Shown in pieces: positions 7,014 to 29,601 of a stretch of 30,877 nucleotides of DNA. The first letter of the stretch is position 1; each line of letters begins with the position of its first letter. This stretch comes from a virus (lineage: Duplodnaviria > Heunggongvirae > Uroviricota > Caudoviricetes): positions 1 to 30,877 of the IMG/VR virus record IMGVR_UViG_2778261069_000012; one strand, written 5' to 3'. The notes under the pieces are model-generated. The model ran no database searches. It saw only the letters and a program-made list of their open reading frames with translations, and was not told the origin of the DNA. Made by a program: the position numbers and the translations under genes.

Positions 7014-9017
7014 ATGCTTAAATTTCGCCGCGATCTTAACGGTTACGGTGGAGTTATTAATGAAGGGCATAACGATCAATACGAATTTGAAATTGCTTTC
7101 TCAAGTACACAGCCTTATCAGCGCCAATTTTGGGATGAGCAAAATCAAGAAATGGTGGTATTAGATGAAATTCTGGTACATACACCGGAAGCGGTTGATC
7201 TGTCTCGTCTGAATAATAACGCTCCGTTGCTGTTCAATCATAATTTCGATAATCACATTGGTGTTGTTTGTAACGCTCGAATCGATGCGGATAACGTAGG
7301 TCGTGCTCTGGTTAAATTCTCCAAGCATGGGACTTTGGCTAATGATATTCGTAATAAAGTCATTGAAGGTACGATGGAAAAAATTTCTGTCGGTTATGAC
7401 ATTAAAGAATATCACATCGATTATGCCAAAGGACAATTGATTGTTACTAAGTGGGCACCCTATGAACTCTCATTTGTCACCGTTCCCGCAGACGATACGG
7501 TCGGTTTAAATCGCTCTCTAAATACTATCACAGTTAATTTGGAGGCTAAACGCGATATGACTAAAGAACAAATCGAAGAAATCAAAAACGAAGAACCCGC
7601 TCAGGTTGAAGAAACTCCGGTAGAAGAAAATAAAGAACTGGAAGTTGAAGAAACTCAAGAGCGCCAAGTTGAAGAGAATAAAGAAAATGAAAATCTCGAA
7701 GACGGAAAAGACGCTGAACATCCTGAAAGTGTTGATGATGATAGTTCAACTGTTCGGGAAACAGAAGAAGTAAAAGAAGAACGTGAAGCCGCTCCGATTG
7801 AAGAAGAAAAAATCGAAGAAGTGGCTGAACGTTCCGAAGAAGACGAATTAGAAATCCGCGAGATCGCGCGGGAACTAAATATTGACGACGAAGAGTTAAA
7901 ACGCGCATTGGCAATTAAAGACATGACGCCGGAAGCATTCCGAACTAAGGCACTAAATAATCTTGTCAATGCTCAACGTAATAACGAACAACAAATTAAG
8001 GACTCTAAAATGGAAAAAACTTTTGACCTGAACAACGTAATTCGCTCTCTGGTAGATGGTGCTGCTCTGGGTGCTAACGAAGCTGAATATTCCGCAATGG
8101 CTGCTACTGCAACTATGCAGCGTGGTCGTGCTGCTCGTGGTGGCTCTGTATTCGTTCCGGCTGCTGCTATGCGTGCTGCTTCTGCTGGTAACACCAAAGC
8201 TGACCTGACCGCTATCACTGACGAAAAACTGATGACTGAATCCTACATCGAAATGCTGATGCCGGAATCTGTTCTGGGTCGTCTGGGTGTGACTGTTTAC
8301 AGTGGCTTGAACTCCCCGACCGCTATTCCAAAAATGACTAAATCCAGCGTTGACGCTTTCGGCTTCGTTGATGAAAACGGTGCTGCACCGGAAAGCAAAG
8401 CTGAATTTGCGAACGTGAAACTGTCTCCGAAAACTTTTGCTGGTGGCAACCCGATCAGCCGTCAGTCGCTGAAAACCGTTCCGGGCATCGCTACCCTGAT
8501 CACCGATCACATTAACAAATCTGTTCGGATCAAACTGGAACAACTGATTCTGTCTGATAAAGAAAATGCTCGTGGTCCGGCTGGTCTGGTTAAGCAACTG
8601 GTAGACGCTAGCCGCGTTACCAAGAAAGCTGCTTTCTCTTATAAAGATTTCCTCAAGGAGATTGCTCAGCTTACGGACGCTGGCGTTCCTGCTCAGGCGA
8701 TCAAGTTTGCAATGAGCGGTGCAACTGCTGCTGAACTGGAATCTACCCTGAAAGATAACGGCGTTTCCGGTTATATCATCGAAAACGGCAAACTGGCTGG
8801 TTACGAAGTAGTTACTTCTGGCGTTATCCCGGCAGACCACATCGTTCTGGGTGACTTCTCCGGTATTACTATCGGTGAGTGGGGAGGTCTGGAACTCGAC
8901 ATGGATCTAACTACATATAGGGATCGTGGTGCGGTAGTGCCTCGTATCTTTGTAGATTTGGACTACGTTGTAGCACAGCCGGAAGCCCTGAAAGTTCTTC
9001 ACATCTCCGCTGAATGA
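7014..9017 (+). CDS. prohead protease / scaffold-like linker / major capsid protein fusion (HK97 fold)
   Basis: 667 aa; N-terminal about 170 aa with LLFNHNFDNHIG motif typical of HK97-family prohead proteases; E/K-rich acidic linker (aa 185-300); C-terminal about 340 aa capsid-like; position after the portal gene. Confidence 0.78.
   Translation: MLKFRRDLNGYGGVINEGHNDQYEFEIAFSSTQPYQRQFWDEQNQEMVVLDEILVHTPEAVDLSRLNNNAPLLFNHNFDNHIGVVCNARIDADNVGRALVKFSKHGTLANDIRNKVIEGTMEKISVGYDIKEYHIDYAKGQLIVTKWAPYELSFVTVPADDTVGLNRSLNTITVNLEAKRDMTKEQIEEIKNEEPAQVEETPVEENKELEVEETQERQVEENKENENLEDGKDAEHPESVDDDSSTVRETEEVKEEREAAPIEEEKIEEVAERSEEDELEIREIARELNIDDEELKRALAIKDMTPEAFRTKALNNLVNAQRNNEQQIKDSKMEKTFDLNNVIRSLVDGAALGANEAEYSAMAATATMQRGRAARGGSVFVPAAAMRAASAGNTKADLTAITDEKLMTESYIEMLMPESVLGRLGVTVYSGLNSPTAIPKMTKSSVDAFGFVDENGAAPESKAEFANVKLSPKTFAGGNPISRQSLKTVPGIATLITDHINKSVRIKLEQLILSDKENARGPAGLVKQLVDASRVTKKAAFSYKDFLKEIAQLTDAGVPAQAIKFAMSGATAAELESTLKDNGVSGYIIENGKLAGYEVVTSGVIPADHIVLGDFSGITIGEWGGLELDMDLTTYRDRGAVVPRIFVDLDYVVAQPEALKVLHISAE
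7556..7900 (+). repeat. low-complexity acidic E/K/V-rich linker inside the capsid fusion ORF
   Basis: Reiterated GAAGAA / EE(x)K(E) motifs; generates spurious antisense ORFs. Confidence 0.6.
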
Positions 9018-9151
9018 ACTCCTGTAGAACCATCTGAACCTTCCCCCGATTTGGGGGAAGAAAATCTGATTCCTAAACCGGAAGAAGATTCCCAGACGGT
9101 TACGGCGAAAGCCACAGTTAAAAAACAACGTAAAACTAAAGAATAATAATT

Positions 9152-9178
9152 AGCCCTGCCTAACGGTGGGGCTTTTTT
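9152..9178 (+). terminator. rho-independent terminator downstream of the capsid gene
   Basis: AGCCCTGCC / GGTGGGGCT stem (two G.U pairs), TAAC loop, then TTTTTT. Confidence 0.7.
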
Positions 9179-9208
9179 GTATGTAAATACTCCATAAAGG
9201 GGGTAACT

Positions 9209-9499
9209 ATGTTCAAATTATCAGAATCACAATTATCAAGAATGTTCCGAAGTGCTCCTGTATTTTCGGTGGAAGGTGGTAAATCAATTCGTGCTTATCA
9301 TGAAATTACCACTACCGACGAACAAGGGGTAATTACAGAATCAGAATTTCTATTTTGTCGTGAGGGAGACTTAAATCAGGGTGATGTTGTCATTGTAGAC
9401 GGTGAACGCTTCAAAGTTCAATACGTTAAGCGCAATGGTGATAATACTTCTGATTGCTTTATTGCTCGTGCAGGGGGTACACATGCTCGCTACCGTTAA
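9209..9499 (+). CDS. hypothetical protein, head completion or head-tail joining candidate by position
   Basis: 96-aa ORF with SD AAGGGGGTAA; between the capsid and tail genes. Confidence 0.5.
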   Translation: MFKLSESQLSRMFRSAPVFSVEGGKSIRAYHEITTTDEQGVITESEFLFCREGDLNQGDVVIVDGERFKVQYVKRNGDNTSDCFIARAGGTHARYR

Positions 9500-9905
9500 T
9501 AATATGCCTAGACTGAAAATCAAACGCGCCTTGCAGGATATTATCGAACAAGATTTAGGTCTGGCTTTAAACGTAGAACAAACTCAGCAAGGCTTTAGTG
9601 ATGACGTGGTTTGTTGGATTACTGGCATGAATGAGACTTACACAAGGGTCCGTGGTGGTAATGCAATGCAAGCTGAATGCGTTATCGAAATGCAGTTGTA
9701 TTCTCAGAATCATGAAACCAAAATTCATGAGGGTATTTGCCAGATAATCCAGATTCAGCCTGATAATCCACGTTTTAAAGATTTGGGCTTCTCTATTTCA
9801 GATATCACTCCAGTAGCTTCTAATACCGATTATGACGATGATTCTAGTGATGGGGGTATCGTTGGGACACTTAGCCTTAAATTTTCTTATCTAGCGCGTT
9901 TTTAA
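9483..9905 (+). CDS. hypothetical protein, head-tail connector or tail completion candidate by position
   Basis: Start chosen at ATG 9483 (SD AGGGGG 5 nt upstream) rather than the SD-less ATG at 9402; overlaps the previous ORF by 17 nt. Confidence 0.5.
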   Translation: MLATVNNMPRLKIKRALQDIIEQDLGLALNVEQTQQGFSDDVVCWITGMNETYTRVRGGNAMQAECVIEMQLYSQNHETKIHEGICQIIQIQPDNPRFKDLGFSISDITPVASNTDYDDDSSDGGIVGTLSLKFSYLARF

Positions 9906-9914
9906 GGGGTAATA

Positions 9915-10748
9915 ATGAATATTACACAAGATAACTTAGACATTTTCACGGGGTCACATGTTGAAGTCTCCGTGTCTACTATGGTGGATAACCAGCCGGA
10001 CTTTTTCGATCCTGCATTTAGTCCTATCGAGAACATCGCAGCATTCCCGACGATAACCGAATCCACAGAGATCCAGACGTTAGAAGAGTATGATCAGGAC
10101 GCTACGGGGAAACTTGCTGGTTATCGTAAACTTGAATCAACTACGTTAGTAGTAAACCGTGTTCTGGATGACGAACATCAAGACATGTTGATGAAAGCGG
10201 TGAATGATAAAACTCCTTTACGCTTTCGTATGTTCTATGTTGTGAACTCTGGCTATAGTGCTGCTAACACAGGTTACTACGTCATTTTTGACGCTTATGT
10301 CTCGTCACATAAAACAAAATCCGGTGATAACAAAGTTACTACAATCGAGTTTAAATTAGAACCTGATGGCGGGATTCTAGATCGCGGTATTGCTACCGAA
10401 GGCCGGATCTTACGTCAAGGTGATTTTGGTTTGGGCGCTGGTGTACATCCATTCACAGGTCCGATTGATAGCGAAGCATTAGCCGGAAACCGTTTCGTAA
10501 CTTATCAGGGATCGAGCGTATCTAATCCATTTAGTGCTGATACTTCACTAATTCACGTTCAACCTAATGAAGATGGTGGATGGCAATTAACTTGCACCGC
10601 TTCCGGCGCACCACGTTTACGAGTTCGCACAGTCCAGAAAGACGGTAATTCTGGATGGGTGAAAGTGTATTCCACAGAAGAAAAACCGACACCAGCCGAG
10701 ATTGAAGCCGTTTCTATCCATGACCGGATCGACTTCGGGGAATACTGA
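9915..10748 (+). CDS. virion structural protein candidate (277 aa) with C-terminal KPTPAEI motif
   Basis: SD AAGGGGTAA; C-terminal EEKPTPAEIEAVS matches a motif in the downstream tail fiber; position just upstream of the fiber gene. Confidence 0.5.
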   Translation: MNITQDNLDIFTGSHVEVSVSTMVDNQPDFFDPAFSPIENIAAFPTITESTEIQTLEEYDQDATGKLAGYRKLESTTLVVNRVLDDEHQDMLMKAVNDKTPLRFRMFYVVNSGYSAANTGYYVIFDAYVSSHKTKSGDNKVTTIEFKLEPDGGILDRGIATEGRILRQGDFGLGAGVHPFTGPIDSEALAGNRFVTYQGSSVSNPFSADTSLIHVQPNEDGGWQLTCTASGAPRLRVRTVQKDGNSGWVKVYSTEEKPTPAEIEAVSIHDRIDFGEY

Positions 10749-10772
10749 TTGCTTCTCTAAATAAAACATGAC

Positions 10773-10806
10773 GCGGGAGGTTAACGCCTCCCTTATTCCT
10801 GTTTTA
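10773..10806 (+). terminator. rho-independent terminator
   Basis: GGGAGG-TTAACG-CCTCCC stem-loop followed by a T-rich tract (TTATTCCTGTTTTA). Confidence 0.6.
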
Positions 10807-10821
10807 TAGTGAGGTGATTCG

Positions 10822-13800
10822 ATGCAGTCGATCCAATTTAAACGAACAAATGTTTCTGGCAAAAAACCAACACCGGAACAATTACAGGTCGGTGAGGTAG
10901 CAATCAACCTTAAAGACCATGTTATTTTCACCAAAGACCGAGATCATGAAGTAGTTCAAATCTCTGTTTCTCCTGAAACTCACGCGGCACTAGAATCTAA
11001 AGTTGATGCTAACAAACAAGAATTGGATAGCACAATTGCAGTAAATGACCGCAATATTCACGCTAAAGTAGATGAAATTAAACAAACTACTGATGCAACC
11101 ATCGCAGCAAATCACGCAGAAATTAACAATAAAGTTGATGTAATTAAACGCGAAACCGACGCGACAATCGAGGCCAATAAAAATAAAGCTGCTTCCGATC
11201 TTGCTGGTGTTAAAGCTGAATTGTCGGATACCATCAACGCTAATAAAAATGCGGCTGCTGTAGCAACTCAGGAACTGGACACCCGCATCAATAAAAAAGT
11301 TGATGATATTAAATCCCGTACCGATGCAACCATCGTAAGCAATCACAAAGCAATCAATGACAAAGTTGATTTGATTAAGGCAGAAACTGACCGCACTATC
11401 GCAGCAAATCACGCCTATGCGGAAAATCAGTTAACTGACACCTACAATAACCTTACTGGTGTGATTGCAGCCAATAAGCAAGAGGCAGCGGATAACGTCG
11501 CAGCATTAACCCGTGATGTTGAAGCCAAAAATACAGCAATTCATAGCAAAGTTGACAATAACAAGTCTTACACTGATTCTGAATTGGCACGCTTAGAAAG
11601 CCGTATTGATGCAGCCGATGGATCAAGTGATGGTAAGTACATCAAAAAGCACGTAAACACTTGCACTGATGGCTATTTGCTGTCTAAGACCGCAAACCCT
11701 TTTGATGATCCGAGTGCTCTTAATCTTGATTACTTTGGTGCATTTCGCATGAATGACCTGGCGGGTCATATTGCAATGATCTTGCATGTTCCGCACCCAT
11801 CCGGCGTTAATCATGCTCGTGGTTTTGAGTTCACTTATGGGTCTAATCCGGTTCATACGGTAAGAACATACGGCTATGATGAATTGGGACATTTGGCATA
11901 TTCTCACCGCATGTATCATGAAGGTGATAAACCTACTCCGGCTGAAATTGGCGCATATTCGAAAGCAGAAATTGACCGCCTGTTCCAGAAGACGCTTAAT
12001 TTTGGGATCGAGGGCGGTTGGTTTAAACTCGGTAGTTTAACACTGCCACAGCAACACGGTCGCACGGCTAAGATTCGTTTAGTGGGTGGTAACGGTTATA
12101 ACGTCGGACAGAATGGACAAGCCAATATTATTGAACTGGTGATCCGTTGCGGCAACAATAGCCCGAAAGGTGTTGTATTCAATGCGTATTATACTATTTG
12201 GTATTATGAACAACATTTTTGTGCAATTCCTACCGATGGTGATAATTACGATCTTTACGCTTACTATGGTGCACATACAGGATTTGTTTTAGCAGAATAT
12301 CAAGTTTCTTCCGGTGGTGTTTCTTTAAACCTGTTGGATACTCCTGAATACCTGGGCGGTGAAAAACCTGTTGCAGATGAAATTTTTGATGCTCTTAACA
12401 TTTCATCGTTCAATAACTTTAGCAACCGTGGAACGTTAAATTTTGGTGGAAACCATCAAGGTCAATATGACATTGAGCATTTGAACGAACAACCGACAAA
12501 TGCTAAAAAGATGTTGCGTCGCTTCCGTAGTTCTGCTCCTGCCACTATCTGGCATGAGACAGTTGATGATAACGCATATCGTCTTGCTACTGGATACGAA
12601 GATACAAATCAGGAATTATTGCTGACAGCAACATCCGGGTTACATGTCAAGAAATTAACATTGGATGGCGGTGTTACTGGAAATTCTGGTATTGATATTC
12701 GTCGAGGACCAAACGAATCAAGTCATTTTAATTTCATGGATTATCGCACTGGACAAGATGTTCGTAATGGTTGGTTTGGTTTTGGTGATGGAACAACCAA
12801 AGATTTTATTTGGTGGAACGATAACGGTCAAAACTCTATAAACCTGATTGAAGATGGTGAATTGCATATTACTGGCGGTAAAGGCCAGAAAATTGTAATG
12901 AATAGCGAAGTTGCATTATCTGAAAATGCTCGTTTGGCTGTTAAAGGTGGCAATTATGGCTTAATTTTTAGAAATGATGGCGTTGGCTTCCATATTCTTA
13001 CCACAGATCTCGGTGATTCATTTGGACCGTGGAATACTCGTAGACCATTCAGCTATAATTTTGCGGACGGTGGATTATATTTAGGTGGTACTGAAACTGC
13101 TCGTTGTTTGCATCTGGGAATTGATGGTAGCACTCGTCTCGAAGACAACCTGTTCTTTAAAGCTGGTTCTCGTCAATCTATGGACTATATGGAACTCGTC
13201 CATTGGGGGGCAAGCAATACAGGTCGAAATAACGTTTTAAGTCTTCGTGACTCAAAAGGATTTTTCGCAGAATTTGAACGATTGGGTGATGATACCATTA
13301 AAAACACCTTCTTCGGGAAACTTAAAGTTAATCGTGGATCTGACGCAATCATCATGAATGCCGAAAGTGGCGATTCGTCTATATATTTGTTGGGTACTTG
13401 TGCTGATAATAACAACTGGTATATCGGTAAAGGTGGTGCTGATAATGGATTAGCGTTCTATAGCTATGCTACTAATGCTGCTATCAATATTACAAACGCG
13501 GGTGATATCGCGCTAAGTCCGAAAGGCGTCGAAATGACTCATGTCAATAACGTTCGGTTCTATGTTCATGGTGAACGTTGGACTGCTAGCCAATCTGGAG
13601 GCTGGGGCGATCAATGGGGATTAGAAGCGCCGATATTTGTCGATCATGGTTATGTTGGACCAGATAGCTATTATCCAATTATTAAAGGAAGAAGTTTAAT
13701 CACCAATCAAGGGTATACAACTGCCGTCGATTTTGGTATGCGTCGTGTTCCTCAAAATTGGGGGCAAGCTATTATTCGTGTTGGATCTGCGGAGGCATCG

Positions 13801-14232
13801 CCAGCGGCTGGTCATCCTCAAGCTGTATTCGAGTTCCATCATGATGGTACTTTCTATTCTCCTGGTAATGGTAACTTTAACGATGTTTATATTCGTTCCG
13901 ATGGTCGTCTGAAAATTAATGTTGAAGATTACGAAGAAAATGCGGTGGATAAGGTAAATAAACTCAAAGTTAAAACCTACGATAAAGTTAAATCTCTTAA
14001 TGACCGAGAAGTTATAGGTCATGAGATTGGTATTATCGCACAGGATTTACAAGAGGTATTACCGGAAGCTGTTAAAACCGCAAAAATTGGTGGTCTTGAT
14101 AACCCAGAAGAAATTTTAACAATTTCAAACTCCGCAGTGAACGCGCTTTTAATTAAAGCGGTCCAAGAAATGAGCGAAGAAAATAAACTTCTTCGTGAAC
14201 GTCTTGCTGCAATTGAAGCTAAATTAGGGTAA
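10822..14232 (+). CDS. tail fiber protein with C-terminal intramolecular chaperone (peptidase S74-like) domain
   Basis: 1136 aa; N-terminal KKPTPEQLQVGEVAINLKDHVIF fiber-type motif; four 22-aa KVDxIKxxTDATIxANH repeats; C-terminal GHEIGIIAQDLQEVLPEAV ... LLIKAVQEMSEENKLL typical of self-cleaving fiber chaperone domains. Confidence 0.85.
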   Translation: MQSIQFKRTNVSGKKPTPEQLQVGEVAINLKDHVIFTKDRDHEVVQISVSPETHAALESKVDANKQELDSTIAVNDRNIHAKVDEIKQTTDATIAANHAEINNKVDVIKRETDATIEANKNKAASDLAGVKAELSDTINANKNAAAVATQELDTRINKKVDDIKSRTDATIVSNHKAINDKVDLIKAETDRTIAANHAYAENQLTDTYNNLTGVIAANKQEAADNVAALTRDVEAKNTAIHSKVDNNKSYTDSELARLESRIDAADGSSDGKYIKKHVNTCTDGYLLSKTANPFDDPSALNLDYFGAFRMNDLAGHIAMILHVPHPSGVNHARGFEFTYGSNPVHTVRTYGYDELGHLAYSHRMYHEGDKPTPAEIGAYSKAEIDRLFQKTLNFGIEGGWFKLGSLTLPQQHGRTAKIRLVGGNGYNVGQNGQANIIELVIRCGNNSPKGVVFNAYYTIWYYEQHFCAIPTDGDNYDLYAYYGAHTGFVLAEYQVSSGGVSLNLLDTPEYLGGEKPVADEIFDALNISSFNNFSNRGTLNFGGNHQGQYDIEHLNEQPTNAKKMLRRFRSSAPATIWHETVDDNAYRLATGYEDTNQELLLTATSGLHVKKLTLDGGVTGNSGIDIRRGPNESSHFNFMDYRTGQDVRNGWFGFGDGTTKDFIWWNDNGQNSINLIEDGELHITGGKGQKIVMNSEVALSENARLAVKGGNYGLIFRNDGVGFHILTTDLGDSFGPWNTRRPFSYNFADGGLYLGGTETARCLHLGIDGSTRLEDNLFFKAGSRQSMDYMELVHWGASNTGRNNVLSLRDSKGFFAEFERLGDDTIKNTFFGKLKVNRGSDAIIMNAESGDSSIYLLGTCADNNNWYIGKGGADNGLAFYSYATNAAINITNAGDIALSPKGVEMTHVNNVRFYVHGERWTASQSGGWGDQWGLEAPIFVDHGYVGPDSYYPIIKGRSLITNQGYTTAVDFGMRRVPQNWGQAIIRVGSAEASPAAGHPQAVFEFHHDGTFYSPGNGNFNDVYIRSDGRLKINVEDYEENAVDKVNKLKVKTYDKVKSLNDREVIGHEIGIIAQDLQEVLPEAVKTAKIGGLDNPEEILTISNSAVNALLIKAVQEMSEENKLLRERLAAIEAKLG
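11065..11430 (+). repeat. in-frame tandem repeats (about 22-aa units) in the tail fiber shaft
   Basis: Four copies of KVD(E/V/D/L)IK(Q/R/S/A)xTD(A/R)TI(A/E/V)(A/S)N(H/K). Confidence 0.6.
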
Positions 14233-14238
14233 TTGGAA

Positions 14239-14258
14239 AGCGGGGAGAAATCTCCGCT
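14239..14258 (+). other. stem-loop with GAAA tetraloop between the fiber gene and the paralog cluster
   Basis: AGCGGGGA-GAAA-TCTCCGCT (8-bp stem, one G.U); no U-tract. Confidence 0.4.
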
Positions 14259-14270
14259 AAGGATTCTTAT

Positions 14271-14567
14271 ATGGGATATTGGGTAAGTAGTGAAATTAAT
14301 ACTAAAATCGATGCTTTAAAATGGCATGTATTTGATATTCCTAACGGCTATGGTACTGCTCGTGCTGGTGTCGCTGTAATGCGTCATAATGCTGGTGGTG
14401 GGTGGTCTGATGCACATATTAACGTAGATGGTTTGACCGTTGCTCGTCGTCGTGGTGGGACCAATTGGGGATCTACTATAAATTCGTTTGTTCCTGCTGG
14501 CTGCACCGTCTCCTTTGGTTTAGGGGGTGAAGGTGGTGTTGAATATTTTAAATTCATGGAGTTTTAA
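14271..14567 (+). CDS. small FDIPNGW-motif protein, paralog 1 of 3 (unknown function)
   Basis: 98 aa; SD AAGGA; shares WxxFDIPNG(W/Y), Gly-rich core and C-terminal TVSF ... YFKF with the two ORFs downstream. Confidence 0.65.
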   Translation: MGYWVSSEINTKIDALKWHVFDIPNGYGTARAGVAVMRHNAGGGWSDAHINVDGLTVARRRGGTNWGSTINSFVPAGCTVSFGLGGEGGVEYFKFMEF

Positions 14568-14569
14568 TT

Positions 14570-14876
14570 ATGGCTGGATGGATAAATCAAAGAATGTCAA
14601 ACGCTATTAGTATTTGGGCTAATGGTGGATATTTTGATATCCCCAACGGCTGGGTTACTGATTCATGCGGAATTGTTTTTGCTCATATGGAAGCCATTAA
14701 CGGTGCTGGTGATCTTGATTCTGAATTGGCTGTAAATGGATTGATTGAATCAGGTCATCATGCTGGTGATACTGGGAGTTGGGGGCGCTAGTTCTTTAGT
14801 TGGCGCTGGTGCTACCGTTAGCTTTACATTGGGTAAAGGTAGTTTGCATTATTTTAAATTCAGGAGAATGCACTAA
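14570..14876 (+). pseudogene. small FDIPNGW-motif protein, paralog 2 of 3, interrupted by a +1 frameshift at a G5 run
   Basis: Frame 2 reads M...GDTGSWGR then stops at 14789-14791; frame 0 continues ASSLVGAGATVSFTLGKGSLHYFKFRRMH to a TAA at 14874-14876, matching the paralog C-termini; the shift maps to GGGGG at 14781-14785. Confidence 0.6.
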
Positions 14877-15178
14877 TGGCATTTTGGGTAGATGGCGCTT
14901 TGGGGAATAGGGCGGGTAAAGCAAATCAAGGATGGTTTGATATTCCTAACGGTTGGACAGCCGACGCTTTCGGGACTATTTCATTCTGTGCTCATTCTTC
15001 CGGTGGTGGCGGTGGTGACTCTGAATTGCTTATTCATGGTTTGTGTGTTTCTGGAAGCCATAAGGGTCATGATTGGGGACAGATTCATTCTTGTATTGCA
15101 CCGCAAGGGGCGGTAATTACCGTTAGCACAAATAGGGGGATCGCTCATCTTCGTTATAGACGTTTGAGCAACCGCTAA
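14876..15178 (+). CDS. small FDIPNGW-motif protein, paralog 3 of 3 (unknown function)
   Basis: 100 aa; SD AGGAGA; ATG overlaps the restored stop of paralog 2 (TAATG). Confidence 0.65.
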   Translation: MAFWVDGALGNRAGKANQGWFDIPNGWTADAFGTISFCAHSSGGGGGDSELLIHGLCVSGSHKGHDWGQIHSCIAPQGAVITVSTNRGIAHLRYRRLSNR

Positions 15179-15232
15179 ATAAATAGAATTACGGGTATGT
15201 GCCCTATTGTTTAAAATAGAAGGAAAAGAATA

Positions 15233-15703
15233 ATGACTACTAAATTTGATATTTTTTCTGGTGGCCTCGTTGGTCTGTTTCTGCATGAAGAAGTAACTAA
15301 CACCGATCTAGACAGTGAAAGCTATCTGGAAATTCCAGAATGTGCGGCTTTCCCGGAAACTGGTGTAGAACGTTCTACTGTCGATGTTCCTAACTTCGGT
15401 GGTCCGTATAACCGTAAGCTGGTTGGTCGTATGTCTGTACCGGATATCGAACTTTCGATCAACTACATGCCGGGTAACGAAGTACACGAAAAACTGATTA
15501 AAGCAACCGAAGACGGTAAGCGCGTACAGATTAAAATTGCTTACTACATCGACGCTACGAAAAAATCTGGTGTACATATCGCTTATAACGGCTTCCTGTC
15601 TAAAACTACCATGACTGGTGGTGAGGATGCTGTAGTAGGCCGTACCTTCACCTTTGTAGTAGATGGTGCTCCGGTTAAACAAGCTGTTTTCCAGAAACTC
15701 TAA
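15233..15703 (+). CDS. major tail (tube) protein candidate
   Basis: 156 aa; directly upstream of the chaperone-position ORFs and tape measure gene; followed by a strong terminator, as expected for a highly expressed structural gene. Confidence 0.6.
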   Translation: MTTKFDIFSGGLVGLFLHEEVTNTDLDSESYLEIPECAAFPETGVERSTVDVPNFGGPYNRKLVGRMSVPDIELSINYMPGNEVHEKLIKATEDGKRVQIKIAYYIDATKKSGVHIAYNGFLSKTTMTGGEDAVVGRTFTFVVDGAPVKQAVFQKL

Positions 15704-15712
15704 TATTATCTA

Positions 15713-15737
15713 GCCATCCTTCGGGGTGGCTTTTTTG
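15713..15737 (+). terminator. rho-independent terminator with UUCG tetraloop
   Basis: GCCATCC-TTCG-GGGTGGC followed by TTTTTT. Confidence 0.75.
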
Positions 15738-15785
15738 TTTCCAATTCTAAATAAACATATCTAATTAACTTAAGAGGAAACAATA

Positions 15786-16094
15786 ATGAATATTAATGAA
15801 ATGTTAGCCGCACTTTCTCCGAAACGCGAATCTCTGACCATCGGTGGATTTACTTTCTATGCTCGCCCTATGTCAGTAAAAGAATTTAACGAACATGTTT
15901 TCAATACCGATAAAGAAGACCGTGATGAACGTTCTATTCTTCGTTGTATTGAAGATGAAGACGGTAAGCCAGTATTTGAATCTATTGAACAAGTTAAGGC
16001 ACTGTATACTAACGTCCGCAGTGAATTAATCGGTTTGGTTGCTCAAGCGTCATTGATGCAAGATCCGGCGGTAATTGAAAACGAGGTAAAGTAA
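15786..16094 (+). CDS. tail assembly chaperone candidate (gpG-position)
   Basis: 102-aa ORF immediately upstream of the tape measure gene; assigned by position only. Confidence 0.45.
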   Translation: MNINEMLAALSPKRESLTIGGFTFYARPMSVKEFNEHVFNTDKEDRDERSILRCIEDEDGKPVFESIEQVKALYTNVRSELIGLVAQASLMQDPAVIENEVK

Positions 16095-20216: not shown

Positions 20217-20636
20217 ATGCTAAAAACTAGGCTTATCACCGATTACATCAATTCTTTAATAGGTCAGGAGTTCGTTCAAGGCGAGAATGATTGCAATATA
20301 ATTGCATGTAAGATCATCGATATTCTCGCTGGTACTGACCTATATAATTCTCTTTATAAAAAATATTCAACTAAAGAAGAAGGCTTGAAAATCTGCAAAG
20401 AATTAAGCGGATACACAAATATCCTTCAACCAATTAAGAAACATTTCAAATTAGTCACTGATGATTTACAGGACGGCGACTTACTGGTCACAGCCCACAA
20501 ATTAGGAAACCGCAAATATTATTCCGTAGTTCCTCATTATTCCGGTTATGGCCTCGTTGAAGAAGATGGTATCTGGATGACCATTCCTGTTTCAGACATT
20601 GACTATGAACAAGTTTATAGATTCGGGGGTGAATAA
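20217..20636 (+). CDS. tail tip assembly protein, gpK-like NlpC/P60-type cysteine peptidase domain
   Basis: Start at ATG 20217 (SD GGAGG 8 nt upstream); ENDC catalytic-Cys motif near the N-terminus with His residues downstream; stop overlaps the next start (TAATG). Confidence 0.5.
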   Translation: MLKTRLITDYINSLIGQEFVQGENDCNIIACKIIDILAGTDLYNSLYKKYSTKEEGLKICKELSGYTNILQPIKKHFKLVTDDLQDGDLLVTAHKLGNRKYYSVVPHYSGYGLVEEDGIWMTIPVSDIDYEQVYRFGGE

Positions 20637-23600
20637 TGGGATTTGAAATATTAGTAGGCGCGGTTATTGCTGGTGCGTCTGCTGGGATGGCTGCTGCTGC
20701 AACGTTTTCTGTTATGACCGCAGTCGCTATCGGTATGGCTGCTGGTGCAATGACCTTGATCGCTTCCACTGTAGGCGCACCAAAAACACCGAAAGTACAA
20801 AGCCCAGATAATGCGGTGACACTAGGAACATCAAACGATCCTAAGACAGTATTACCCGTTCTTTTTGGTACTACCCGCACGGGTGCAATCTGCGTTTACA
20901 AGGCAATTTCACAGCGTGAAAATAACAAGCTGGTACAAATTTTTGCTATTGCCGAAGGTGAGATCGATCACTTTAAAGCACTGCACATCGATAATAAAAA
21001 CGTTCTCATTAGCCAGAATATGACAATTCGTGATGGCATTCTCGATAAAGGAAACATTAAAGACGAATACCGCAAAGTTTTAGAAGTCGAGTTTCGCACG
21101 GGTAAAAATCCTAACACTGCATTGGATTTAGCTAAACATCATTTGGGCGCTGATTGGGATGATCGGTATCAGGGTAACGGCATTGCGACCATGTGTATTG
21201 TTTTACGTCGTGATGACAAATCTTTGGCTGCTGGTGTTGATATTCTCCAGCCTAATAGCCAGGTAGCGGTCGATGTTATGGGCTTAAAGATTCGTAACCT
21301 TGAAACCAATGCTATTGAGGCTAGCACTAACGGCGTGGACCAGATTTTCCATTATCTGACAAATACAAAGTATGGTCTTAGTGTACCGATTGAAAATATT
21401 AACGTTGATTCATTCCTGAAAGTGCGTAAACAAGTACGCCAGATGGATTTACATTCCAACGGTGCATGTGATCCGAACGCCAGCTTTAAAGAGAACTTAA
21501 CTAGCCTTATGCAGACTTTCGGCGGGGTGATGTTCGAATCCTTTGGACGTATTACGCTGAAACTGGATGCTCCTGATATTGTTAAGCATACCTTCAATGA
21601 AGACAATATCATGATGGGTAAGGTATCACTGAAAACAGGTGGCACTAACGGTTATTTCAATACCATTAACGCGATGTATCAAGAACCATCAATCGACTAT
21701 TCAGAGCAAATGCTACGTTATCCGGCTGATGCTGAAAACGATGCTACTATTCGTCAAGATGGTCGAATTATCGCTAAAGACATTGAATATCGTTTTGTTA
21801 AGTCTAAAGCCCAGATTGATAAACTAGCGAGTGTAGAACGAAATAAATCTCGTATCACTCAGGTTATCAGCTTTATGACTACTGACGCATTCACTGCCGA
21901 AGTGTGGGATGTTATTAGCGTTACCTATGATGAATTAAAACTGAATAATTCACTTTGGCGCATTACTGCAATTGATCGTTCTATTGATTCTGGTATTGCT
22001 GGGATGATGACTATCACCGCTACAGAATATAATTCTCAGGTTTATACTGACCTGAACTATGCGGCTAACCCAGATAACCGACCAAGTGGTTTACCGGATT
22101 CAATGACAGTACAGAAGCCTACTAATTTCAGAATTAAGGCAACTGGTGAAACCATCCACGGTAAAAACGTAACTTTGACATGGGATGCACCGGAAGATTT
22201 CAACCGCTACGGTTTCCAGATTGATTATCGTGTGAGTGGATCACCTAACTGGATTAAGCTGGGACAGACTTCACAGCAAATTTTCAATATCAATGCACTG
22301 GCAAAAGATCGCTCCTACGATTACCGCGTTTGTGCTTTCGGTATTATTGCTCGTTCCGAATGGGTGGAACTGGTTAACCAGAATCCTACTGTTACCTATG
22401 AATTGCCGACTCCGGTTATTCGAATCAAAAATCAGGGTAGCACGCCTGGTACTTTCGAAGGCAATGATCTGATTATCGAATGGGAAAATCAGCAACAATT
22501 AGATGTGATGATCAACGGTGAAGCTAACAAGTTTAGTGACCTGTTTGAAGCATACATTATCAAGGTAACTAACAAGGCTGGTAAGTCTATTCAGTACCGT
22601 ACCCGCGATCCTGAATCATGGACTTATACGCTTGATATGAACCAGTTTAACGGCCTTTCCCGTGAATTGACGGTAGAAGTATCAGTCAAGGGCTATAACA
22701 ACTCAGAGAGCGCCCCAGCGCGTTTAGTGGCTATCAACCCACAACATAAGCCGATGAAAGGTTTTAGTGCGCGTGGTGGCTTTAATACTGCGTTTGTTAG
22801 CTGGGCGGATGACGTAGAACATGACTATGCAGGGTCAATCATCCAGTATGCAACCGATAATACTTTCTCCGATGCAAGGGCAGTGACTACCAATAGCGTT
22901 AGTCATACTTCCTTTGATTTGGCTGACGGTGATTATTATATCCGTGGTGCTCACTATGATATTTTCGGTATGGATGATGCTGTTTGGTCTGAACCGTATT
23001 TCATGCAAATGAAATCTACCATTAGCTGGGACGATCAGGACAAAGAAGCACTGGAAGACCTGATTGGTTTACAAGATCGCTTAGATGAAACCATCGCGGA
23101 TGCTATTGCTCAAGCTGGCGCTAATGCCGATGCTAAGATTGATGCAATGCATAAACAGATTACTACCGAGACAGGGCAGACGGTCCAAGCCTCAGCCGAT
23201 ACTCTCAAGAGTCTGATTGCTACCAGTGAGCAAGCCAGCGCAACTAAGATTGATCAGGTTAAAGCTGAACTGAAAGGCGATATCACCAAAGAAGTTAGCG
23301 CATCCGCTACTACCCTGAAACAAGCAATTGCTACCAGTGAGGCAGCAAGCGCAAGTAAGATTGATCAAGTTCGGGTAGAAATGGATGGCAAGATTGCTGG
23401 TGTGAATCAGGAAGCAGATGTAAAAATCGATGCTTTGAAGGGAACCATTAACAGCAAATATAATCTGGCAGTTAATGCAGATGGTCGCGTGGCTGGTATT
23501 CATATGAGCGCAACCAATGATCCGGCAGAACCGACAAGAATCATCTTTACGGCTGATAAAATCGCGGTAGCTCCACAAGACGGATCAGAAGTTTGTCCGT

Positions 23601-24412
23601 TTGGTATCGAAGGTAACAAGGTTTATCTCGATAATGCCATGATTCGTAATGGGGCGATCGGAACAGCCCAGATCAACGATGCTAGCATCACCACGGCTAA
23701 AATCGGCACAGCCCAGATTAACGGTGCTCACATCCAGCACGCCCAGATCGGAACAGGTCATATTATTGATGGCTCTATCGATAATGCTAAAATTGGTAAC
23801 TATATCCAGTCTTATAACTGGAATGGTAACGATGGATGGTATATCGGCAAAGATGGCACTTGTCATTTTAGACACGCTAATATTCGTGGTCATTTGGTGG
23901 CTGATTCCGGCGAAATGAACAACGTAACGATTAATTCAAGTTGCCGCATTTTGGGTATGCTTGATGCTAATCAGGTGCGTGGTGACTTCGTGAAAGCTAT
24001 TGGTCGTCGATTCCCACATTGGGACGAAAACCCATCATTGGGCTATCCCGGTTATCCGCAAGGTACAATCACTGTTCGAATTGAAGATGATCACCCGTTT
24101 GATCGTCAGATTATCGTTCCGGCTATTAGCTTTGGTGGTCTTAATGCGCGTGAAGGCTCGAATAACAATACTTACTATGATAACTGTCGCTTGATTGTTC
24201 GCAAGAACGGTGCTGAATTATATAACCGTGCATATGGCAGACAGACTGGATTGTATAGTGCTGTTATTGATATGCCAGCCGGACACGGACCAGTTACGCT
24301 AACTTTTGAAGTAAGTTCAAGCGCAATCAACAACTGGACTCCCAGCACATGGATCAGCGATCTTTCTGTAATTGTTACTAAGAAAGCCGCTACGGGTATT
24401 TCTGTTTCTTAA
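20636..24412 (+). CDS. tail tip / host-specificity protein, gpJ-like, with an N-terminal gpI-C-like hydrophobic domain fused in frame
   Basis: 1258 aa; N-terminal about 95 aa (Gly/Ala-rich hydrophobic stretch, PKTPKVQSPDN, VLPVLFGTTRTGA) resembles the C-terminal half of lambda gpI; C-terminal about 150 aa (DDHPFDRQIIVP ... VIDMPAGHGPVTLTF ... ATGISVS) resembles the lambda gpJ C-terminus from memory. Confidence 0.88.
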   Translation: MGFEILVGAVIAGASAGMAAAATFSVMTAVAIGMAAGAMTLIASTVGAPKTPKVQSPDNAVTLGTSNDPKTVLPVLFGTTRTGAICVYKAISQRENNKLVQIFAIAEGEIDHFKALHIDNKNVLISQNMTIRDGILDKGNIKDEYRKVLEVEFRTGKNPNTALDLAKHHLGADWDDRYQGNGIATMCIVLRRDDKSLAAGVDILQPNSQVAVDVMGLKIRNLETNAIEASTNGVDQIFHYLTNTKYGLSVPIENINVDSFLKVRKQVRQMDLHSNGACDPNASFKENLTSLMQTFGGVMFESFGRITLKLDAPDIVKHTFNEDNIMMGKVSLKTGGTNGYFNTINAMYQEPSIDYSEQMLRYPADAENDATIRQDGRIIAKDIEYRFVKSKAQIDKLASVERNKSRITQVISFMTTDAFTAEVWDVISVTYDELKLNNSLWRITAIDRSIDSGIAGMMTITATEYNSQVYTDLNYAANPDNRPSGLPDSMTVQKPTNFRIKATGETIHGKNVTLTWDAPEDFNRYGFQIDYRVSGSPNWIKLGQTSQQIFNINALAKDRSYDYRVCAFGIIARSEWVELVNQNPTVTYELPTPVIRIKNQGSTPGTFEGNDLIIEWENQQQLDVMINGEANKFSDLFEAYIIKVTNKAGKSIQYRTRDPESWTYTLDMNQFNGLSRELTVEVSVKGYNNSESAPARLVAINPQHKPMKGFSARGGFNTAFVSWADDVEHDYAGSIIQYATDNTFSDARAVTTNSVSHTSFDLADGDYYIRGAHYDIFGMDDAVWSEPYFMQMKSTISWDDQDKEALEDLIGLQDRLDETIADAIAQAGANADAKIDAMHKQITTETGQTVQASADTLKSLIATSEQASATKIDQVKAELKGDITKEVSASATTLKQAIATSEAASASKIDQVRVEMDGKIAGVNQEADVKIDALKGTINSKYNLAVNADGRVAGIHMSATNDPAEPTRIIFTADKIAVAPQDGSEVCPFGIEGNKVYLDNAMIRNGAIGTAQINDASITTAKIGTAQINGAHIQHAQIGTGHIIDGSIDNAKIGNYIQSYNWNGNDGWYIGKDGTCHFRHANIRGHLVADSGEMNNVTINSSCRILGMLDANQVRGDFVKAIGRRFPHWDENPSLGYPGYPQGTITVRIEDDHPFDRQIIVPAISFGGLNAREGSNNNTYYDNCRLIVRKNGAELYNRAYGRQTGLYSAVIDMPAGHGPVTLTFEVSSSAINNWTPSTWISDLSVIVTKKAATGISVS
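23189..23410 (+). repeat. in-frame tandem duplication (about 111 nt / 37 aa) within the gpJ-like gene
   Basis: SADTLKSLIATSEQASATKIDQVKAELKG versus SATTLKQAIATSEAASASKIDQVRVEMDG; the nearby IGTAQIN motif also occurs twice. Confidence 0.6.
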
Positions 24413-27902: not shown

Positions 27903-29582
27903 TTAAATTCCAAATTCCTGTAATGGACCTGGTATTTCCTCTTCTGGTTTCCAGTTCTTATCTGTCAGCATGTCTAAACATGGATGCAAAACAAGCCCGT
28001 TACTCTCCAGAATCTGCCTATCATTGATAGTTTTCAAATCAATGAATATCCGGCCTTTCCTCGTTCCTCTTGAATTTTCTATTACAACTCTCTGGGTCTT
28101 TCCATCGATGTATTCCAGCACAAACAAGTTTTTATTTCTGTCAATCCTGCTACACCCGATCCGCTTTAGAGCTTGCTTAATCTTAAACCGGACCTTTAGT
28201 CGTTCCTCGTTATAAACATCTTCTAAATCAAATTCTGCGAGCTTCTCCCAGCCTTGAGAGTCCACAGAATACATTTCCTCTTCTGCCATCTTGATCTGAT
28301 TGTAGAGTGTTTCACGCTCGCTATTGAGGGTAGTAATCTGATCGGCTAGCTCCTTCGTTGCTCCTGTCATAGCAGAAAGGGCAATCAGGTTATCAATCTT
28401 GCGTGATATTTCATCAACCTGTACTTTCAACGCCGGAACCGGATTAGCCTTGTCCTCAGCAATCCAGATTTTATCAGCCAGCAATTGCAATACAGCTTTC
28501 TCTAATTGATCACCTCGAAAACTCCAGTTTGGATGCTCGCAATCAAGTCTACGTGAACGGGTCGCATCACATGTATAACGATACTGGTCAGAACGTTTGT
28601 TCGTTCCCTTCACTTTAACCATAGCGCAACCGCAATGATCACATTTCAATAGGCCAATACCACTAAGCAGGGGGATCGGTTTAACTTCTTCCTTGTCTCC
28701 AAAGTTCCATGCTCTAGCACCAATATTTTTCTTAAGGTGATAGAACGTAGCATCATCAATAACACGAGGGTAATAATTCTTTAACTCATAGTTAACACCA
28801 TCTACAGAGACTTCCTTGATACCAATCAAAGCGCGGGTATGGAACAACCTTTCAACCATTGCCCGTGACCATTTTGAATGCTTCTTATTACTAACCGCTG
28901 GTGGCGGTGTATATGTCTCGTTAAGGTGATCCAGTATTTCGGCGGTTGAACGTCCATTCTTCCGTAATTCCACAATCTCCTGAACAACAGGGAAGTACAC
29001 CGGATGAGGCAGCACATAACCGGAAGTGGTATCAGTCCACCACATATTCTTTCCAACTTCCTCGATAGCCACTGCCGGATTTTGTGGATTTTCTTGATGA
29101 GCTTTAATCTTAATCAATGCGCTTGAGTTAGTACGATTGCGCTTAGTCTGACTTTCCTCATTACCACGGATGAATAAAAGGATGGAGAACATCAGGTCCA
29201 TCGGATTAGCGGTAACAGTATCCAGCGAGTAGATCTTGTTATCCATGCCAGTAACAATGGTTATTCCCCTACGGATGATTGAAAGGAATAACTCCTGCGC
29301 ACTGACAATATCGGCACGGGATAAGCGGTCCAAGTTTTCAATGAATAGCCAGCTACCAACAGGAACGGATCTACCAATTGCATCAAGGAAACGAGATAGC
29401 GCCCCTGTTTTAGAGTTAGCACCCTTAAACGCAGATACACCCAGATCCTGATAATCATTTACCAGTTCAAGGTCATACTTTGCCGCAACCTCTCTCGCCA
29501 TCCTGATTTGTCGTTCATAACTCGAACCATCATTCTGACGCATAGACGAGAAGCGAATATACGAATACAGTTTAGTTTTCAT
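27903..29582 (-). CDS. large serine recombinase (integrase-type)
   Basis: 559 aa from ATG 29582 (the ORF track begins at an upstream TTG at 29597); N-terminal resolvase-type catalytic domain (YSYIRFSSMRQ ... ENLDRLSR); Cys-rich zinc-ribbon (CDHCGCAM ... C ... C); C-terminal coiled coil. Confidence 0.85.
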   Translation of the reverse strand: MKTKLYSYIRFSSMRQNDGSSYERQIRMAREVAAKYDLELVNDYQDLGVSAFKGANSKTGALSRFLDAIGRSVPVGSWLFIENLDRLSRADIVSAQELFLSIIRRGITIVTGMDNKIYSLDTVTANPMDLMFSILLFIRGNEESQTKRNRTNSSALIKIKAHQENPQNPAVAIEEVGKNMWWTDTTSGYVLPHPVYFPVVQEIVELRKNGRSTAEILDHLNETYTPPPAVSNKKHSKWSRAMVERLFHTRALIGIKEVSVDGVNYELKNYYPRVIDDATFYHLKKNIGARAWNFGDKEEVKPIPLLSGIGLLKCDHCGCAMVKVKGTNKRSDQYRYTCDATRSRRLDCEHPNWSFRGDQLEKAVLQLLADKIWIAEDKANPVPALKVQVDEISRKIDNLIALSAMTGATKELADQITTLNSERETLYNQIKMAEEEMYSVDSQGWEKLAEFDLEDVYNEERLKVRFKIKQALKRIGCSRIDRNKNLFVLEYIDGKTQRVVIENSRGTRKGRIFIDLKTINDRQILESNGLVLHPCLDMLTDKNWKPEEEIPGPLQEFGI

Positions 29583-29601
29583 ACCATTTCCAAACAAAAA
29601 C

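Follow-up and report, generated by a model that had tools for sequence, protein, structure and literature searches.

The window analysed here is the whole 30,877-nucleotide (nt) stretch of IMG/VR record IMGVR_UViG_2778261069_000012, and the gene under study is the fibre gene at 10822–14232 (+) in its tail module. The host phage of the fibre is a temperate lambda-like siphophage, an Escherichia coli prophage. Coordinates refer to the window, and amino acid (aa) numbers to the fibre unless stated otherwise. Comparisons were made with 5,426 complete E. coli genomes, a collection of 50,697 phage records, IMG/VR, metagenome relatives and a representative protein library. The initial annotation, made from the window alone, had described an 1136-aa fibre. 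It was found that the open reading frame (ORF) is open throughout its 1136 codons, that a ribosome-binding site (GAGGTGA) lies 5 nt 5' of the fibre ATG, and that the body of the protein is of the gp37 type. The gene ahead of it, at 9915–10748 (+), encodes a 277-aa protein with a tail-tube fold and a gp36-like C-terminal joint, which is proposed to be the proximal subunit and anchor of the fibre. Between the two genes, a weak terminator-like hairpin was found at 10775–10792 (+) by consensus scan only.

The first 50 residues of the fibre (10822–10971 (+)) were assigned as a gp37-type N-terminal joint domain. Residues 3–46 matched positions 6–49 of phrog_1699 (long tail fibre distal subunit) with an E-value of 6e-19, and the N-terminus was 36–41% identical to gp37 of Krischvirus G37-3 and KFS-EC and also aligned with T4 gp37. 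When the N-terminal 392 aa served as query in a word-indexed protein search, just 29 enterobacterial proteins, mostly partial, were retrieved, and these added little. The joint is followed by a periodic shaft (aa 53–266, 10978–11619 (+)) that had no counterpart in T-even gp37 and appeared as an insertion in the alignments with gp37 of Krischvirus. Autocorrelation of the protein sequence in this shaft gave peaks at lags of 11, 22, 33, 44 and 55 residues. The four 22-aa shaft repeats described before were recovered as four clear copies, at aa 79–122 and 156–199, within a longer 11-residue periodicity spanning approximately aa 53–266; the lag-22 identity was 25.7%, compared with a maximum of 18.3% among 500 shuffles. 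The repeat exists at the protein level only, as Tandem Repeats Finder reported no array in the DNA. The same region lacks proline, contains two glycines and shows a hydrophobic period of 3.67; the periodicity was as strong in 2 of 300 shuffles. This stretch of ∼214 residues is probably an alpha-helical coiled coil of roughly 30 nm.

The gp37-type, beta-structured shaft and tip (aa 280–1025, 11659–13896 (+)) showed much closer relatives. Residues 280–1136, chaperone included, corresponded to aa 66–920 of KFS-EC gp37 with 87.5% protein identity over 857 aa, and the shaft and tip were 60% identical to gp37 of Krischvirus G37-3. The match of phrog_1699 to this region (E-value of 2e-125) was collinear with gp37. 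Pfam scans of the body identified Gp34_trimer at aa 644–745 and, weakly, gp37_trimer at aa 843–906, and the PDB sequence matches were to Mu S, T4 gp34 and the tip region of T7 gp17. A glycosidase or lectin domain, which had been considered for the central part, or any other enzyme domain was not detected among the Pfam, PHROG and PDB sequence matches; the body is of the gp34/gp37 type. NCBIfam gave no matches for the fibre or its neighbours.

The S74-type C-terminal chaperone named in the initial annotation was readily confirmed. The segment at aa 1026–1136 (13897–14232 (+)) begins with SDGRLK at 1026–1031, and Pfam PF13884 matched aa 1026–1085 with an E-value of 5e-14 and 52.7 bits against a cut-off of 22. 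Ser1026 and Lys1031 stand at i/i+5, matching the spacing of the catalytic pair of T5 pb1, in which Ser1264 is scissile and Lys1269 is activating (PMC4690869). The chaperone is predicted to cut itself off at Arg1025/Ser1026, which would release 111 residues and leave a mature protein of 1025 aa. Judged from its sequence, the product is a T-even-type, self-chaperoning long side tail fibre that is both real and mosaic.

Inspection of the 277-aa protein suggested how such a fibre could be held on a siphophage tail. Its N-terminal domain has a tail-tube fold and matched the PHROG major tail protein family with an E-value of 2e-10; it matched the tube protein of the window itself with an E-value of 3e-4, and that of a related prophage with 29% identity over 157 aa (E-value of 2e-16). 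By these similarities the protein is identified as a duplicate (paralog) of the tail tube protein. At the C-terminus, its final 28 residues (KVYSTEEKPTPAEIEAVSIHDRIDFGEY) and those of Krischvirus gp36 (ELYHEGHKPTPAEVGAVPLNAVIDFGTF) aligned over their full length, with 46% identity and an E-value of 3e-5. T4 gp36 ends in ...VIKDSVQDFGYY, and the gp36-like and gp37-like end motifs both align with T4 gp36 and gp37, respectively. In the T-even distal half fibre the gp36 trimer adjoins gp37, and the C-terminus of T4 gp36 faces and joins the N-terminal end of gp37. With a gp36-like C-terminus upstream and a gp37-type N-terminus downstream, the prophage thus seems to reproduce both halves of the T-even joint in adjacent genes, the gp36 half being fused to a tube domain. 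Neither the single sequence of the 277-aa protein nor a profile of it found anything meaningful among PDB sequences. The protein was also considered as the tail terminator, which would have favoured a fibre at the neck. This was dropped, because the 140-aa product of 9483–9905 (+) has the terminator fold (lambda gpU / T5 p142 type) and fills that role.

The fibre had been placed between the head and tail genes. It does lie upstream of the tube gene (15233–15703 (+)) and not after the tip genes, the J-type gene being at 20636–24412 (+). However, it is not strictly at the head-tail border: the terminator gene and the second tube-fold gene precede it, so the fibre sits inside the tail module. The tube gene encodes a 156-aa major tail tube protein (PHROG major tail protein, E-value of 4e-20; weak Pfam matches to lambda tube families) and precedes the chaperone pair and the tape measure. 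The J-type tail tip or central fibre protein (1258 aa) was identified by Pfam Ig_GpJ_C (E-value of 2e-35) and Phage_Tail_Tip (E-value of 4e-18) and by PHROG tail fibre families, and the fibre is distinct from it, as had been claimed. The presence of both makes two recognition devices plausible, as in Ur-lambda and T5.

The pairing of the two genes was conserved. In IMG/VR, all 38 complete related loci keep the tube paralog and fibre pair, with paralog identities of 35–99%. In each of them, a paralog of 277–485 aa ends in (I/V/L)D(F/L/A)G.(Y/F) and is followed 43–83 nt further on by a fibre of 685–1207 aa with the gp37-type N-terminal motif. The same synteny was seen in metagenome relatives at 39% identity, the tube gene of which has an Ig-like C-terminal domain. 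A locus search seeded on the terminator and aimed at relatives without the pair yielded none: the loci retrieved were solely from very close relatives, and each of them had it. In the phage collection, the sole homolog of the paralog was found in the DCP80 record, where it has a fibre-like extension of 699 aa and a fibre of the gp37-N type comes next. This 141-kb record (PQ671644, 'Escherichia phage DCP80') is classed as a T4-like Gaprivervirus but starts with a siphophage module homologous to the prophage, and it may be a chimeric assembly.

In the E. coli genomes, the paralog gene and the first ∼50–65 fibre codons were conserved and the remainder was replaced, by other S74 fibres, by 'pyocin knob' fibres or, in one variant, by a fibre with a 'phage head spike fiber domain'. 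That annotation raised the reading of a head fibre, which was set aside as the partner has a tube fold. The DNA identity to Krischvirus KFS-EC was 97% over 1.9 kb of the fibre gene and 97% over 2.2 kb running into the downstream ORFs. More generally, the distal three quarters of the fibre (aa ∼280–1136) together with the downstream small ORFs showed 80–97% DNA identity to the long-tail-fibre regions of Krischvirus, with a recombination boundary just 3' of the fibre joint domain. Megablast against the phage collection gave no match for the window outside the fibre region. To judge from these identities, the distal cassette is one that was recently exchanged with virulent Krischvirus (RB49-like T-even) phages. 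The earlier proposal of a transplanted module therefore holds for the distal cassette and the small ORFs but not for the position of the gene: the slot, the partner gene and the first fibre codons are kept across the lineage, so the position is ancestral. A free-standing GIY-YIG nuclease gene was observed between the paralog and fibre genes of E. coli OkiPb01713 (1465–2502 of that locus stretch), beside the recombination boundary, and a gene with a GIY-YIG nuclease annotation is also listed for CFSAN061761. The nuclease may be a homing endonuclease promoting cassette exchange.

It could be supposed that the fibre attaches independently of the upstream protein, through J, the distal tail protein or an unrecognised collar, and that the 277-aa protein is a minor or decorated tube variant along the tail. 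This was considered very unlikely. The two genes co-occur in every one of the complete loci, the end motifs of both are kept from lineage to lineage and in T-even gp36 and gp37, the recombination boundary falls right after the joint domain, and no additional fibre or collar protein came out of the PHROG and Pfam scans of the remaining ORFs in the tail module. We consider it fairly likely instead that the fibre is the distal, receptor-facing half of a two-protein side fibre, plugged by a T4-style joint into the upstream tube duplicate. Three fibre chains would fold with the S74 chaperone, the domain and Ser/Lys pair of which are seen in the sequence, and would then undergo self-cleavage at Arg1025/Ser1026. 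By analogy with the T4 gp36–gp37 joint, the N-terminal 50 residues would bind the 277-aa protein at its gp36-like C-terminal peptide (...KPTPAEIEAVSIHDRIDFGEY). The paralog's N-terminal domain would form one tube-like ring, the six C-terminal arms of which could provide two trimeric docking sites. The periodic stretch would space this joint from the gp37-type shaft and tip by its ∼30 nm. In adsorption, the fibre would act beside the J-type tip protein and provide the reversible, primary step. The joint, being conserved, would serve as a socket, with the distal parts swapped by recombination.

Three small ORFs, A, B and C, follow the fibre gene. ORF A (14271–14567 (+), 98 aa) is paralogous with B and C and 99% identical to the ORF after gp37 in Krischvirus G37-3, and C (14876–15178 (+), 100 aa) is paralogous with A and B. 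ORF B (14570–14876 (+)) is frameshifted and open to 14791 only; intact 101-aa versions exist in the prophage relative UTME-8 and in G37-3. The frameshift was traced to one extra G in the G-run at 14781–14785 (GGGGG, compared with GGGG in UTME-8 and G37-3), which means that B is a real pseudogene or else that the homopolymer was misread in sequencing. Krischvirus G37-3 and G2248 also have the trio 3' of gp37, in the interval from gene 37 to the holin gene that gp38 occupies in other T-evens, and the G37-3 proteins differ from the prophage copies by 1–3 substitutions each. KFS-EC, a viable isolate, has just one ORF here, truncated and chimeric: its first ∼89 aa match A and a C-like segment follows, as if paralogs A and C had recombined to give a deletion. 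The family occurred in 4 distinct phages of the 50,697-record collection, and a search of the representative library with A returned only 13 clusters with no informative relatives.

The trio was strictly associated with one type of chaperone. Among 42 distinct fibres, it accompanied all 11 with the chaperone type ending RERLAAIEAKLG and none of the other 31, and other variants encode gp38-like proteins. In prophage ETEC4085 the fibre is ∼96% identical through aa 1000 and then continues with a different chaperone and a T2-type gp38 adhesin, without the trio. Another prophage variant has a 168-aa ORF with a gp38-like N-terminus (PGWVGSS...QRWMS; 13583–14089 of that locus), placed after the tube gene. 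In phage S16, gp38 caps the gp37 tip via three tryptophan-bearing helices, and the A/B/C trio may be an alternative tip cap or assembly factor. A conserved Trp at position 4 of A, B and C was weighed as the equivalent of the three Trp anchors of gp38, but it was not invariant in more distant homologs and is a weak lead. It is conceivable, if rather unlikely, that the tube duplicate with its gp36 socket anchors T-even-type half fibres and that, after release of the chaperone, up to three A/B/C paralogs cap the three-fold tip, one per symmetry-related site, in place of the monomeric gp38. If true, the A/B/C cap would be a new tripartite adhesin class that a few Krischvirus phages have as well.

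Several observations count against the two-protein side fibre proposed above. The gp36-like match spans 28 residues only, and the AlphaFold 2 model of the C-terminal half of the paralog was of low confidence, with a predicted local distance difference test score (pLDDT) below 50 for aa 163–224 of that protein. The gene order terminator, paralog, fibre, tube points to a proximal and not to a distal ring. Transposase genes of insertion sequence (IS) elements (IS421, IS3-family and IS903B) are annotated within the paralog-to-tube stretch of the relatives 14EC017, L3Cip3 and OW848980, which together with the frameshift in ORF B implies that some copies may be decaying or inactivated. Carried further, the IS insertions, the frameshift and the near-identity to a virulent phage gene would fit a fibre cassette captured from a T-even phage and left unused by the prophage as decaying cargo. 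Nevertheless, the 3.4-kb ORF is intact with a good ribosome-binding site, and every complete relative examined has an intact fibre, in many variants. This argues for selection for a working, diversifying receptor-binding protein, and decaying cargo was judged extremely unlikely.

The position of the proposed ring was weighed separately, since the earlier suggestion had been a neck- or collar-attached fibre. 'Collar' is a fair word, because a protein with a tube fold appears to be the docking site of the fibre; the neck was retained as a rival. According to that rival, the ring of the tube paralog would be the last added, directly under the terminator, and the fibres would be suspended at the head-tail junction in the manner of whiskers or a collar. 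The order terminator (9483–9905), paralog (9915–10748), fibre, tube is indeed the usual head-to-tip order of siphophages, and gene position was likewise used by the T5 authors to place p140 (PMC10038345). However, a bona fide terminator is already present, and position specificity would be easily obtained beside the distal tail protein. A fibre of ∼80 nm (a rough estimate) hanging from the neck would also stop short of the tip of a tail set by the 809-aa tape measure. Two specialised tube-fold rings other than terminators, T5 p140 and T4 gp54, are both located at the distal end. In T5, p140 is a tube duplicate between the tube and the distal tail protein that carries the collar for the S74-bearing pb1 side fibres (PMC10038345), and the Stf side fibres of Ur-lambda attach at the gpV/gpM junction (PMC12617516); the solved side fibres of coliphage siphoviruses (T5, DT57C and Ur-lambda) all anchor at the junction of tube and distal tail protein (PMC10038345, PMC12617516). 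By this analogy, the distal position is somewhat ahead and the neck, although doubtful, is kept as its main rival. A ring of the paralog at the tube/distal-tail-protein junction, resembling T5 p140 and the Ur-lambda collar, would therefore be favoured, with a ring under the terminator as the alternative.

A close likeness was to the T-even distal half fibre (gp36 plus gp37, T2/Krischvirus type), with which the system shares the gp37-type N-terminal joint, the collinear shaft and tip, the S74-type C-terminal chaperone, a partner ending in a gp36-type peptide, and accessory genes in the place of gp38. It differs in the fusion of the gp36-like peptide to a tail-tube domain, with only the last 28 aa of gp36 represented, in the ∼214-aa periodic region after the joint, and in that the host is a siphophage without a myovirus baseplate. 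The PHROG and Pfam scans recognised neither gp34 nor gp35 among the ORFs of the window. With the T5 pb1, p132 and p140 system it has in common a siphophage side fibre, a C-terminal chaperone of the self-cleaving type with Ser and Lys at i/i+5 (here predicted), a tube duplicate at the attachment level (here proposed) and a separate central receptor-binding device; outside the chaperone, no sequence likeness to pb1 or p140 was shown. In contrast to T5, where the p140 ring is two-domain and p140 is 9% identical to pb6, the prophage tube duplicate appears to be single-domain and is 29% identical to a related tube; it would itself carry the fibre socket, and the fibre gene lies upstream of the tube gene. 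T5 has the Ig-like collar protein p132, whereas no collar protein was named by the PHROG and Pfam scans of the prophage.

Ur-lambda is likewise a lambda-like phage with a J tip and dispensable side fibres related to gp37 (PMC12617516), and its side-fibre gene and that of the prophage are both recombination hot-spots. Its Stf has its own 12-mer N-terminal collar, a gene downstream of J and a separate chaperone, Tfa, whereas the prophage fibre has a gp37-type N-terminus by sequence comparison, a gene upstream of the tube gene and an intramolecular chaperone. No Tfa-like ORF was named in the Pfam scans of the tail module. Members of the S74 family (K1F endoNF, phi29 gp12 and T5 pb1) share PF13884 at the extreme C-terminus and Ser-x4-Lys at its start, but the body of the prophage fibre is of the gp37 type and not a sialidase or beta-helical spike.

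Mosaic tail fibres have been known since the 1990s, and this general picture is unchanged. S74 chaperones and dual recognition devices are also already known. The fusion of a tube paralog with a gp36-type end as an anchor, and the trio in the gp38 slot, appear to be undescribed in the literature searched. The T5 authors stated that lambdoid side-fibre anchoring must differ from that of T5 (PMC10038345). T5 and Ur-lambda anchor their side fibres differently, and a tube duplicate with a gp36-type socket would be a third solution. Such a socket would be naturally modular, itself staying conserved and leaving the distal fibre free to be swapped. The 97% DNA identity to the fibre of a virulent Krischvirus indicates recent traffic of host-range cassettes between temperate E. 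coli siphophages and lytic T4-like phages, which bears on host-range prediction and on the engineering of therapeutic phages.

ORF calls and PHROG and Pfam scans showed that the structural module of the window is in lambda order. The head part comprises, 5' to 3', a gpA-type large terminase, a head-tail joining protein, a portal, a 667-aa protease-capsid fusion and an FII-like protein. In the fusion (7014–9017), an S78 prohead protease domain (aa 40–162 of the product) is joined by a highly acidic linker to an HK97-type capsid domain (aa 409–663). After the fibre region come the tube gene, two chaperone ORFs, the 809-aa tape measure, the distal tail protein, hub-associated proteins and the 1258-aa J-type tip protein, and the tail module is followed by lysis genes and a large serine recombinase. 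At 27903–29597 (-) lies an ORF of 564 aa; a gene annotated as a recombinase family protein occupies the same place in the UTME-8 prophage. Prophages 92–95% identical to the window were found in ∼60 of the 5,426 E. coli genomes, and the UTME-8 relative interrupts ycdX, beside ghrA and tRNA-Ser. Terminator-like sites numbered 11 in 8900–16000, compared with 5.2 expected. Strong terminator-like hairpins with T-runs were observed at 9152–9173, 3' of the capsid gene, and at 15712–15731, 3' of the tube gene; such hairpins are to be expected after abundant structural genes.

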